Part shown: piece by piece, positions 1,493 to 4,437 of the stretch
How the letters are laid out: each line of letters starts with the position of its first letter
Numbering within the stretch: position 1 is the stretch's first letter
IMG/VR virus record: IMGVR_UViG_2737471865_000001
Span: 1 to 34,668 of that record
DNA: 34,668 nucleotides
Strand: one strand, 5' to 3'
DNA from: a virus
Lineage: Duplodnaviria > Heunggongvirae > Uroviricota > Caudoviricetes
Translations under genes and position numbers: made by a program
Notes under the pieces: model-generated
Seen by the model: the letters and a program-made list of their open reading frames with translations, nothing else
What the model was told of the DNA's origin: nothing
Database searches by the model: none

Positions 1493-1783
1493 TCATGATT
1501 TACTCTCCACGAACTGGTCAATAGCCATGCTAAGTGACATACCTAAAGTCTCGATATGCTGCTGAATATCCTGTAGCGTCTGCGCCTGAGATAACAGGAT
1601 TTCACGGTTGCATAATTCTTTAACCAGATGCTCAAACTTGCTGTAATAACCGATACGGCTTAGTGTTTCTTTCCCTGCATTCTCACCTTCTTTGATAATT
1701 CCTCTTTCACTAAGAATCAGGTCGTGTTTGGTTCCGGTAATAACGTATTTGCCGAGGTCGATATTTAGCTTCATTGTTTTCAT
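1493..1783 (-). CDS. hypothetical protein (96 aa from Met52 of the track ORF)
   Basis: Track ORF 1493..1936 overlaps the upstream gene. An internal ATG at 1781..1783 is preceded by GAGGA at a good spacing, giving [17 protein letters not shown]...; I take this as the likely start. Confidence 0.45.
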
Positions 1784-1793
1784 TGTTAATTCC

Positions 1794-2090
1794 TCAGTCA
1801 TTACTGATAGCGCCATAGCGTGAGCGGTAATTACGCAGGCGCGGGTCGATATATTCAGGGAAGTGGGTATATGTGGCTTTGCGGAATGGTCGGATTGATG
1901 TCTGGTAAATGCGCTCGCGTTCTTCTTTCTCTGCAAGCCATATGCAATGGCGAAATTCCTTTTCCTCTTTCGTTTCCTGCGGTAGCGACATTATCCGATC
2001 GTAGTTTTTTCTGAATTTATCCAGCACCTCCGATACGGAATTGCCGGAACAGCGGCGCGGGTCATCCGCACCATACCGAGGCGCTGGCAT
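1794..2090 (-). CDS. hypothetical protein (98 aa)
   Basis: ORF packed directly downstream of ssb in the same operon; basic, no recognisable motif. Confidence 0.45.
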   Translation of the reverse strand: MPAPRYGADDPRRCSGNSVSEVLDKFRKNYDRIMSLPQETKEEKEFRHCIWLAEKEERERIYQTSIRPFRKATYTHFPEYIDPRLRNYRSRYGAISND

Positions 2091-2103: not shown

Positions 2104-2610
2104 TTAAATTGCGTGAATAGCGTGACGAGGGAAGGGGAGAGTTACTGGTGCAAAGGGTATATCGTCGTCAAAATCCATCGGAGGTTCGTTGTGTTGTGCT
2201 GGTGATGATTGCTGCTGTGGCTTCTGTGATTGCCTGCTGGCTGCTTGTTGTTTGCTGTCGCCAATGCCGCCAAGCATTTGCATCACGCCATTAATTCCGA
2301 CATGAACCTCGGTTGTGTAACGGTCTTGCCCTGACTGGTCTTTCCACTTTCTGGTTCTCAGCATTCCCTCGAAATAAATCTGATCACCTTTTTTCACATA
2401 CTGCCCCACGACCTCAGCCAGTTTCCCGGATACAGCAACACGATGCCATTCAGTCAATTCCTTTTGCTCGCCAGTATTTTTATCTCGCCATTGTTCTGAC
2501 GTGGCTATTGTCAGGTTAGCGAACGCTGTTCCTGATGGTGAGTATCGAACTTCCGGGTCTTGTCCTACCCGACCAAGGATAATCACCTTATTTACGCCTC
2601 TGCTTGCCAT
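2104..2610 (-). CDS. ssb: single-stranded DNA-binding protein (SSB) with a C-terminal extension past the DDDIPF tip
   Basis: OB-fold N-terminus [23 protein letters not shown]...; Gly/Gln-rich linker; acidic MDFDDDIPF motif. Unlike canonical SSB, the ORF continues for 15 more codons ([15 protein letters not shown]) before TAA at 2104..2106. Confidence 0.9.
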
Positions 2611-3318
2611 TTATGCCGCCTGTTTTAGTTCGTTAACTCTGATGTTCATTACCTGAACGCATTTAGCCTGCGCATCCTCATTGCCAGCCATTAATTGCCA
2701 GTCACGCTGATAACGCTCGATGAGTTTTTTCTTGTCAGTTTCTGTTGACGCATAATCGCTGAAGTCTTTCAGGATTTGTTCGCAGTCAACCGATGGAGAT
2801 TTCTGGTTGGTATTTTCTGGTGATGGTTTGTTATCTGATGCTGGGATTGCCCATCCCGGAAGCGATGGAGGGAGCCAGTAAAATCCTGTTCCATCCTTCA
2901 GTTTTGCCCTGTGCCACCCCTGCTTTTTATCGAGAGATGTTTGTGCGAAACCTTCCTCAAGGTTATACAGATACCGACCGATTCCCCACTGAACGGCAGC
3001 GCGCTTCATTGCACCGGAACGACCACCTTTGACGGCTTCTACCTGCGTGTTTTCAGCAGCATCCCATTTGGTTACCCATTCGGAATCAATCTTTATTGAT
3101 ATGCCGCATTCAACGCCGCCGTTGTTGGGAATATCGCGGTATTCATTGCGCCATCCTGCTTTGCCGCAAACATCGTCCAGGCGCTTCATGATTGCCCGGT
3201 TCGTGACATAAGCCAGCACCATAGCCCACACCTTGCCATCGCGTGTTTTACCGCTTTGCTGTATTCGCCATTCGATATCTTCAGGGCTGAATGGCTCATC
3301 GAATTTGTTCAAATCCAT
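2611..3318 (-). CDS. single-strand annealing recombinase, Rad52-like N-terminal domain with P22 Erf-like C-terminal tail
   Basis: N-terminal region has the Rad52/Sak-like motif KRAAVQWGIGRYLYN. The C-terminal ~60 aa (ILKDFSDYASTETDKKKLIERYQRDWQLMAGNEDAQAKCVQVMNIRVNELKQAA) closely resembles the C-terminus of P22 Erf as I recall it. Located next to ssb. Confidence 0.7.
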   Translation of the reverse strand: MDLNKFDEPFSPEDIEWRIQQSGKTRDGKVWAMVLAYVTNRAIMKRLDDVCGKAGWRNEYRDIPNNGGVECGISIKIDSEWVTKWDAAENTQVEAVKGGRSGAMKRAAVQWGIGRYLYNLEEGFAQTSLDKKQGWHRAKLKDGTGFYWLPPSLPGWAIPASDNKPSPENTNQKSPSVDCEQILKDFSDYASTETDKKKLIERYQRDWQLMAGNEDAQAKCVQVMNIRVNELKQAA

Positions 3319-3725: not shown

Positions 3726-3844
3726 AACGCCTCCAGTTGTTTCTTTGCTGCTCTGATTAATTGTTTAACTCGGCGTGATAATTCAGATTCGTGCGGGTAG
3801 AAAGCGGACATGACGCCGCTACCCGCTAAAATATATTCATTCAT
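3710..3844 (-). CDS. cIII-like small protein (44 aa), not in the ORF track
   Basis: My translation: MNEYILAGSGVMSAFYPHESELSRRVKQLIRAAKKQLEALCAMK. Resembles the lambda cIII N-terminal and central region (M.YAIAG...ESLLERITRKLR) from memory. Start overlaps the HNH stop as TAATG. Confidence 0.4.
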   Translation of the reverse strand: MNEYILAGSGVMSAFYPHESELSRRVKQLIRAAKKQLEALCAMK

Positions 3845-4356
3845 TATTTGCTCCTGTAGAATTCGCCGTGATGCTTTCTGGCAAAGTCGCAGTAAGCTTT
3901 TTTGGCATCTTCTAATTCATTAAAGTACCCTAGATGTTTTTTCTTTCCGTTTAATTTCCCATAGGCAGCCCACTTTCTACTTTCCTTCTTCCATGTGACT
4001 CCTTTGCAACCTGATTTGTTGAGGGTGTTTATTTTACTATTCATTGAATTCTGTGAGTAAGTTGCAAGCCTCAGATTGCAAATTCTGTTATCTGTCTTAA
4101 TGCCATTTATATGGTCGATAATACCTTCAGGCTCAACACCGAAAGTGATAATCCATGCAAGTCTATGTGCAGCATAGTGTCTTCCGTTAATGAAAATCCT
4201 TAAGTAGCCGCTTGTTGTTATTGTTCCGGCAGTTCCACCTATCTTCCTTGCTCCATAAGATTTTAGCCATGTGAACTCACCAGAAATAGGGTTATATTTG
4301 ACAACATTATTAATCTCACTTAGGGAAATTAATTCAAGAATCTTTATAAATGCCAT
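3844..4356 (-). CDS. HNH homing endonuclease with AP2-type DNA-binding domain
   Basis: HNH_3-type motif GIIDHINGIKTDNRICNLRLATYSQN followed by an AP2-like GVTWKKESRKWAAYGKLNGKKKHLGYFNELEDAKKAY. AT-rich coding sequence. The track start is TTG at 4369..4371; ATG at 4354..4356 with an AGGA RBS is more likely. Confidence 0.8.
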   Translation of the reverse strand: MAFIKILELISLSEINNVVKYNPISGEFTWLKSYGARKIGGTAGTITTSGYLRIFINGRHYAAHRLAWIITFGVEPEGIIDHINGIKTDNRICNLRLATYSQNSMNSKINTLNKSGCKGVTWKKESRKWAAYGKLNGKKKHLGYFNELEDAKKAYCDFARKHHGEFYRSK

Positions 4357-4437
4357 TTTATATCCTATCAACTGCGTTCATTAATCAGCGTTTACGCTCA
4401 TGAATAAACACCTCTCGTGAAGCGTTATTGTTATGCA

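Follow-up and report, generated by a model that had tools for sequence, protein, structure and literature searches.

The SSB (single-stranded DNA-binding protein) of a tailed phage, encoded in the 34,668-nt stretch of DNA analysed here (the whole of IMG/VR record IMGVR_UViG_2737471865_000001, referred to below as the window), keeps the acidic tip of bacterial SSBs and buries it under 15 additional residues, and comparative data on the sequences indicate that this extension is a genuine, selectively maintained part of the phage protein. Within the literature searched, it is apparently an undescribed, although widespread, variant of the SSB tail. With somewhat better than even confidence, we favour a joint reading in which the extension is a selected tail variant, the internal position of the tip blocks the docking of host proteins, and the extension itself gives some partner other than the neighbouring recombinase a second place to dock.

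Architecture of the ssb gene and its surroundings

In the 168-residue protein, an OB fold is followed by a Q/P-rich linker, the acidic tip and, before a TAA stop codon, the 15-residue extension (Table 1). The Pfam SSB model (PF00436) matches residues 6-104 (E = 1.6e-36), and the TIGR00621 ssb profile aligns with residues 4-153 at 166.9 bits (cut-off, 53.95 bits) and stops exactly at F153, the Phe of the tip, which leaves the final 15 residues beyond every curated SSB model. A beta-barrel was predicted at residues 8-113 by AlphaFold2, which was run on the SSB monomer with a 14-sequence alignment. The linker and the tip (D-F-D-D-D-I-P-F) are present, and the tail was modelled with a pLDDT of ~30 and no docking onto the OB fold, a low confidence that makes the model uninformative on docking. 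By every test the window protein is an SSB, save for the defining C-terminal tip with a free alpha-carboxylate on its last Phe: 15 residues follow F153. The sequence-only reading of this DNA, according to which the frame runs past ...MDFDDDIPF into 15 residues before a TAA stop, is borne out by the translation and by the SSBs of phages HK75 and mEp235, which are identical to the 168-residue protein of the window; the positions given in that reading, 2104-2160, take in the stop codon, the extension and the codons of IPF.

Table 1. Features of the ssb region (window coordinates)
Feature	Position	Strand	Basis
ssb gene, 168-aa phage SSB	2104..2610	-	ORF translation, Pfam SSB, TIGR00621
Tip codons (MDFDDDIPF), internal instead of C-terminal	2152..2178	-	Sequence
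15-codon post-tip extension	2107..2151	-	Sequence; outside every curated SSB model
TAA stop of ssb, a module joint followed by abc2 or a DnaQ-like exonuclease gene in relatives	2104..2106	-	Junction alignments
GCA (Ala154), point of endonuclease gene insertion in relatives	2149..2151	-	Comparison with L232; Sf6 alike
Tip + extension island, ~78 nt, near-identical between divergent ssb genes	2104..2181	-	Comparison with L242
erf-like single-strand-annealing gene (Rad52/22 family), directly upstream of ssb	2611..3318	-	Pfam Rad52_Rad22 E = 5e-26; HK75 annotation
abc2 anti-RecBCD gene, directly downstream of ssb	1794..2090	-	Pfam Anti-RecBCD_p2 E = 4.6e-61; HK75 annotation

The window region is 98.5% identical in DNA to phage HK75. 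Its erf, ssb and abc2 genes are contiguous on the minus strand with no nuclease gene between them, in the same erf-ssb-abc2 order as in the lambdoid recombination module of the HK75 type (Abc2, SSB-1 and an annealing protein), as described in PMC12315714, and the abc2 start codon (2088..2090) lies 13 nt past the ssb stop. In the passages of that paper concerned with SSB, the C-terminal region, Abc2 and HNH, SSB-1 is treated as an ordinary SSB homologue, these SSBs are presented as experimentally unstudied, and a post-tip extension is not mentioned.

Two other ORFs on the minus strand of the window deserve comment. A 147-aa, TTG-start ORF at 1493..1936 with a weak DUF5405 match overlaps abc2 by ~140 nt; its true start is probably an internal ATG, which would give a short gene just past abc2. 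A 175-aa ORF at 3844..4371 combines HNH_3 (E = 1.8e-15) and AP2 domains, has the look of a freestanding homing-type endonuclease, and lies just upstream of short ORFs that occupy the kil and cIII positions of HK75.

Distribution of the extension

Alignment of homologues, which the sequence-only reading had proposed as a check, revealed that the extension is conserved in hundreds of phages and in several protein families. It is the same in the SSB of phage epsilon34, which is 92% identical overall, and the 45-nt extension together with the stop codon recurs exactly in at least 119 IMG/VR contigs. The ssb region is matched by 409 of 5426 complete E. coli genomes (170 at full length), and the matches listed are annotated as ssb, their alignment continuing through the extension. 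Approximately 60 of the 79 IMG/VR relatives with an SSB ORF readable to a stop codon are extended. A scan of 80 loci from genome assemblies, nearly all of them chromosomal ssb genes that served as a control, yielded 77 SSBs ending in ...PF and only two extended ones (79 could be read to the stop), one of which adjoins a RecT gene. Variants of the extension are carried by SSBs 57-73% identical to that of the window in phages of Klebsiella, Citrobacter, Enterobacter, Pluralibacter, Phytobacter, Providencia and Proteus, and a protein search with a 46-aa tail profile, which returned mostly short fragments, added Proteus, Providencia, Serratia, Tatumella, Edwardsiella, Vibrio and Oceanisphaera.

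The most distant extended SSB seen is located on a Motiliproteus MAG chromosome (L154, 3001-3531), an Oceanospirillales genome, and ends in DDDIPF followed by ARLGMQWRGGELII.

A conserved motif under selection

The extended tails share a common motif, IPF-[AS]-P-hydrophobic-G/T-L-x-aromatic followed by 3-4 residues and a hydrophobic end, which has a fixed spacing after the tip and is predicted to be disordered. Its carriers are OB-fold SSBs from many temperate phages of enterobacteria as well as unrelated SSB-like phage proteins. Examples in diverged SSBs include APIGLPYPRHAIYVI, APVGLPYPRHCIYLI, APIGLQFSRHSIHAI, SPVGLQYGKHRVYAL and APIGLMHPTHAIFSI, and conservation with variation is further illustrated by APIGLQYPALLSVM and ARLGMQWRGGELII. 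The PVTLPF of the window is derived from the commoner form P-I/V-G-L-Q-Y.

The peptide itself is under selection, since third codon positions vary and synonymous changes are in excess. One allele encodes the same 15 residues through eight synonymous and no nonsynonymous differences, and the distinct codon changes found in the extension of the E. coli/Salmonella group comprise 14 synonymous and six nonsynonymous ones, against a neutral expectation of 27% for the synonymous share (binomial p = 7e-5). Across 14 diverse alleles, the codons of A-P-hydrophobic-G-L-x-aromatic are near-fixed at positions 1 and 2 and use all bases at the third (Gly is GGA, GGC, GGG or GGT; Leu is CTN or TTR). Pooled pN/pS was 0.32 in the extension and 0.20 in the OB domain, whereas the tip, at 0.09, is under the strongest purifying selection in the gene, and synonymous divergence in the extension is half that in the rest of ssb.

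In a lineage of Providencia/Proteus-type phages (L259-L284), drift has altered the acidic stretch of the tip (EPPQDWDDPIPF) but left IPF and the extension (APIGLPYPRHAIYVI) constant, a pattern which hints that the constrained unit in this lineage is IPF plus the extension and not the acidic run.

The same tail on unrelated proteins

When a profile of the tip and extension was searched against 1.84 billion representative proteins, the same tail was detected on proteins that are not homologous to one another. The carriers are SSBs of phrog_44 and phrog_743, a 389-aa protein of phrog_4477, a 406-aa protein of phrog_2544 and a 268-aa protein of phrog_3284, the phage locus of which also encodes a chimallin-family protein. 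In all these families (phrog_44, 743, 3284, 4477 and 2544), the family profile stops at IPF while members continue as [AS]-P-[IVFY]-G-L-Q-Y-x(3-4)-hydrophobic end, which makes the extension an optional add-on to SSB-type tails.

At the phage locus with the chimallin-family protein (L289:6807-7283 and L290), an endonuclease frame lacks a start codon before its first CxxC and is open through the extension codons, in a different frame. This frame may belong to a pseudogene, or frameshifting out of the SSB-like gene may allow its expression.

The tip/extension junction as an insertion site for mobile endonuclease genes

As comparison with close relatives indicates, mobile endonuclease genes insert where the tip meets the extension. 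The SSB of Sf6 and of many relatives ends in ...DSDIPF and a stop codon, directly after which an endonuclease gene follows. The ORF of this endonuclease (gp26 in Sf6) ends in 14 residues identical to those of the extension and encoded by the same 45 nt, because the gene has inserted at the junction; Sf6, ES18 and others accordingly match the window in two pieces, split around the insertion. The most informative relative is L232, whose ssb backbone is the same: a single mismatch to the window in ~440 nt is followed by eight clustered in the last 28 nt, which recode the tip from MDFDDDIPF to MNFDDEIPF, and a 438-nt insertion then stands in place of just the GCA codon of Ala154, with identity picking up at CCAGTAAC. 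A different relationship was observed with L242, the SSB of which is ~70% identical in protein: tip and extension together contain one mismatch, and the flanks are divergent on both sides. Endonuclease-carrying alleles have NFDDSDIPF or NFDDEIPF tips on differing ssb backbones, and all four combinations of the genes flanking the junction were seen. A third type of endonuclease, a 165-aa HNH_3 protein with a zinc-binding loop, follows ...NFDDEIPF and its stop in two loci (L240:2734-3231 and L258:2212-2709), where the extension has been lost and the N-terminus of abc2 is changed (MPKPLFDYNNPLRC vs MPAPRYGADDPRRC).

Endonuclease genes are hence present or absent between near-identical alleles at a precise point, and substitutions cluster beside the insertion in the alleles that carry them. 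Judging by the sequences, this combination of presence/absence, precise insertion and a short conversion tract is the pattern left by freestanding homing endonuclease genes, as known from the intronless homing of the seg/mob type in T4, and homing and conversion at the junction would account for the near-identical ~78-nt island and for the halved synonymous divergence of the extension. The insertions produce the canonical-tip alleles of Sf6 and its relatives, in which the extension stays behind as the last part of the endonuclease ORF. Its changes there (nine synonymous to five nonsynonymous) do not differ in ratio from those in SSB (14 to six; Fisher p = 1), a comparison that is uninformative as to whether selection is relaxed on the endonuclease ORF. 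The literature searched for endonuclease genes beside ssb contained nothing specific.

The gp26-type endonuclease (L004:905-1384 in our set) belongs to phrog_2340, a family for which no Pfam or PDB relative was found and which shows only weak endonuclease VII-like similarity; in contrast to the T4 genes, its putative homing is suggested here by the sequence pattern. In 73 of 80 IMG/VR loci (L292-L371), a phrog_2340 gene starts 2-80 nt after an ORF ending in an acidic ...[IVL]PF tip, with the stop codon immediately after PF in 70 of these, compared to 4/80 in a control on the reverse complement and 1/80 in a control downstream. The upstream ORFs represent at least six different, unrelated SSB or SSB-like PHROG families; since the tip is the feature common to them, the tip-coding DNA is the likely target of this endonuclease, which may nevertheless have a working partnership with SSB or act as a working recombination nuclease.

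A conserved spacer of ~41 nt separates the IPF stop from the endonuclease start in a subset of these loci (L327, L329, L339, L344-L346, L349-L353, L357, L358, L365 and L371). A palindrome is made up of the tip codons plus the stop (ATACCNTT-TAG-AATGGTAT), and behind it come a direct repeat of the tip DNA (CATACCTTTTT) and AAGGAG; the spacer could be a hairpin, a terminator or an endonuclease recognition site. A derivation of the extension from this spacer of environmental loci was considered and rejected, as the likeness, judged by eye, is too weak. Travel of the extension together with the endonuclease gene, both of which are found in L288 and L289, was also rejected as a general rule, given that a downstream endonuclease is missing from five further non-lambdoid extended tails.

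How the extension may act

In the solved structures, the pockets that bind the SSB C-terminus grip the last Phe by its side chain as well as by its alpha-carboxylate (PMC10238739). When GFP is joined directly to the C-terminus of E. coli SSB, the protein shows normal ssDNA binding, cannot bind ExoI or sustain strand-displacement synthesis by Pol III, and is dominant negative (PMC7293020); in this engineered protein, as in the phage SSB, added residues block the carboxylate of the terminal Phe, whereas the phage extension is natural, phage-encoded, 15 residues long and conserved in a sequence of its own. Because host partners hold the free alpha-carboxylate, the extension, by making the tip internal, is predicted to prevent the docking of ExoI, chi, RecQ and PriA. 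Phage ssDNA intermediates would thereby be shielded from host nucleases and helicases, and this shielding would come from a module that also contains abc2, the anti-RecBCD gene. Of the earlier proposal that the extension is a real variant that changes partner binding, the first half stands, the variant being real and selected; the change in binding is what we infer from the solved pockets (PMC10238739).

A mere block needs no conserved sequence, and for this reason the motif probably binds something. Its hairpin-like pattern of alternating hydrophobic residues would then form a second docking element for a partner other than the neighbouring recombinase, the likeliest candidates being SSB itself and a host protein that Gammaproteobacteria have in common. 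The very strong conservation of the tip (pN/pS 0.09) counts against a simple mask and would be odd if the tip were inert; the tip could work internally, or the extension could be removed by proteolysis. Phages whose ssb has lost the extension to the inserted endonuclease (Sf6, ES18 and others) are common and viable and share Erf and Abc2 with the extended ones, which makes the extension dispensable and likewise counts against a simple mask, as does the disorder of the tail in the AlphaFold2 model.

Sliding clamp-binding peptides follow the consensus QL[SD]LF or QLxLxL, with Gln at position 1 and hydrophobic residues at positions 2, 4 and either 5 or 6. The P-V-T-L-P-F of the extension (P-I-G-L-Q-Y in relatives) has a clamp-like hydrophobic pattern, but P, R or S always takes the place of the Q at position 1, and the resemblance may serve as a lead only. 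A more specific version of the favoured reading, which we advance tentatively and hold to be possible at most, is that SSBs with a blocked tip coat ssDNA, perhaps as mixed tetramers with host SSB, skip the host interactome and engage a different hub partner, with the sliding clamp as a candidate, through A-P-hydrophobic-G-L-x-aromatic, and that endonuclease insertion toggles the tip between blocked and free.

Alternative explanations

A sequencing error, a frameshift or a true stop codon that this isolate has lost has a negligible probability: nothing speaks for it but the unusual position of the tip, the same protein recurs in phages that were sequenced independently and in genomes and contigs by the hundred, the reading frame is unbroken by any frameshift, and purifying selection is evident in the extension. 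Wide conservation and this selection refute the decaying gene or one-off frameshift that the sequence-only reading had offered as its other option. It might also be supposed that the constraint lies in the nucleotides, as a conserved RNA structure, a regulatory site of abc2 or an endonuclease recognition site to which the peptide is incidental, considering that 45 nt are 100% identical among ssb genes differing elsewhere, that synonymous divergence is halved and that the site adjoins the endonuclease insertion point. This supposition is highly improbable: the mRNA fold around the extension was no better than that of shuffled sequences (z = +0.96), the region gave neither an Rfam match nor any site resembling a promoter or a terminator, diverged alleles keep the amino acids while third positions change freely, and the downstream gene differs among relatives. 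An origin of the 14-15 codons as the former 3' end or flank of the endonuclease gene, fused to ssb by a deletion and without a role in SSB, would agree with the identical end of the Sf6-type endonuclease ORF, with the ~78-nt island and its lowered synonymous divergence, and with L288 and L289, where a homologous endonuclease gene comes straight after the extended tail. The comparisons nonetheless indicate insertion into an extended ssb and not an extension made by deletion, because distant endonuclease homologues end in ...PIY(xx) without the extension, because the diversity of the extension far exceeds that of its endonuclease-linked copies, which extended SSBs also seem to predate, and because extended tails without an endonuclease nearby are found in five non-lambdoid loci (L291, L372, L374, L375 and L376). 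The alignment of the window with L232 likewise has the form of an insertion into an extended ssb, and amino-acid selection is clear in the ssb frame, all of which makes a passenger origin rather improbable.

The remaining alternatives accept that the peptide has a function and differ as to which. The extension could be a docking site specific to Erf, as the sequence-only reading had suggested in supposing that it favours the adjacent recombinase; ssb does lie between erf and abc2 in a single operon, and phage annealing proteins do use SSB tails, for example Sak4 with the HK620 SSB (PMC5928155). Extended SSBs adjoin a Rad52-like Erf in the window, L124, L128 and L264, but the same motif stands beside AAA_24/Sak4 in L127 and L259, RecT in L133 and RdgC-FtsK-gamma in L287 and L372, and the downstream gene may be abc2, a DnaQ-like exonuclease, an Rv2179c-like exonuclease, RdgC or none. 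Moreover, the motif is found on non-OB proteins of unrelated phages, and Sf6 has a 95%-identical module with a free-tip SSB. The varied recombinases and downstream neighbours are evidence against tuning to Erf, which these comparisons do not support and which we consider clearly improbable; they seem to point to a partner common to many gammaproteobacterial hosts or to an effect on SSB itself. The main rival to the favoured reading, though unlikely in its turn, is a pro-peptide or degradation tag, in which the nonpolar end would target the SSB to a host protease, so that the DDDIPF tip is freed or the protein is short-lived. C-terminal degradation tags of the ssrA kind are recognised by cytoplasmic proteases through nonpolar last residues, and some variants of the extension resemble the end of the ssrA tag (YALAA). 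The tip is as conserved as in canonical SSBs, as would be expected if it were eventually exposed, all variants end in hydrophobic residues (AIHAI, AIYVI, IYVI, IYAL, LYALA and LLNCM), and free-tip alleles are viable; a C-terminal degron, however, leaves unexplained why the extension is best conserved in its N-terminal half (A-P-hydrophobic-G-L-x-aromatic).

Relation to known SSBs

The window protein shares with E. coli-type SSBs (PF00436, TIGR00621) the OB-fold domain for DNA binding and tetramerisation and the Q/P-rich disordered linker, and its 11-residue acidic tip is identical to that of E. coli SSB; it differs in that the tip is not C-terminal and 15 conserved residues lie beyond it. The SSB of phage HK620 is likewise encoded in a recombination module, and its tail mediates partner choice and stimulates the cognate Sak4 (PMC5928155). 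The tail of that protein, NDYPPF, is divergent yet terminal in ...PPF, whereas the window SSB keeps the canonical tip and then extends. Searches of literature full text with extension motif strings retrieved no relevant paper, and the PDB contained no solved chain with the extension.

Implications

The insertion of endonuclease genes at the junction offers an explanation for a 20-year-old annotation oddity in Sf6 gp26. The extended tails also matter for recombineering, which depends on matching SSB tails to phage annealing proteins. More generally, the free C-terminal Phe of SSB is regarded as a universal handle for recruiting the genome-maintenance proteins of bacteria to ssDNA, and a widespread, selected class of phage SSBs keeps this handle and buries it under a conserved 15-residue motif. 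Such burial implies a previously undescribed rewiring of the SSB interaction hub during infection or prophage induction, from which it can be predicted that binding of ExoI, chi and PriA would be lost, that the phage protein may act in a dominant-negative manner, and that a new partner would be engaged.
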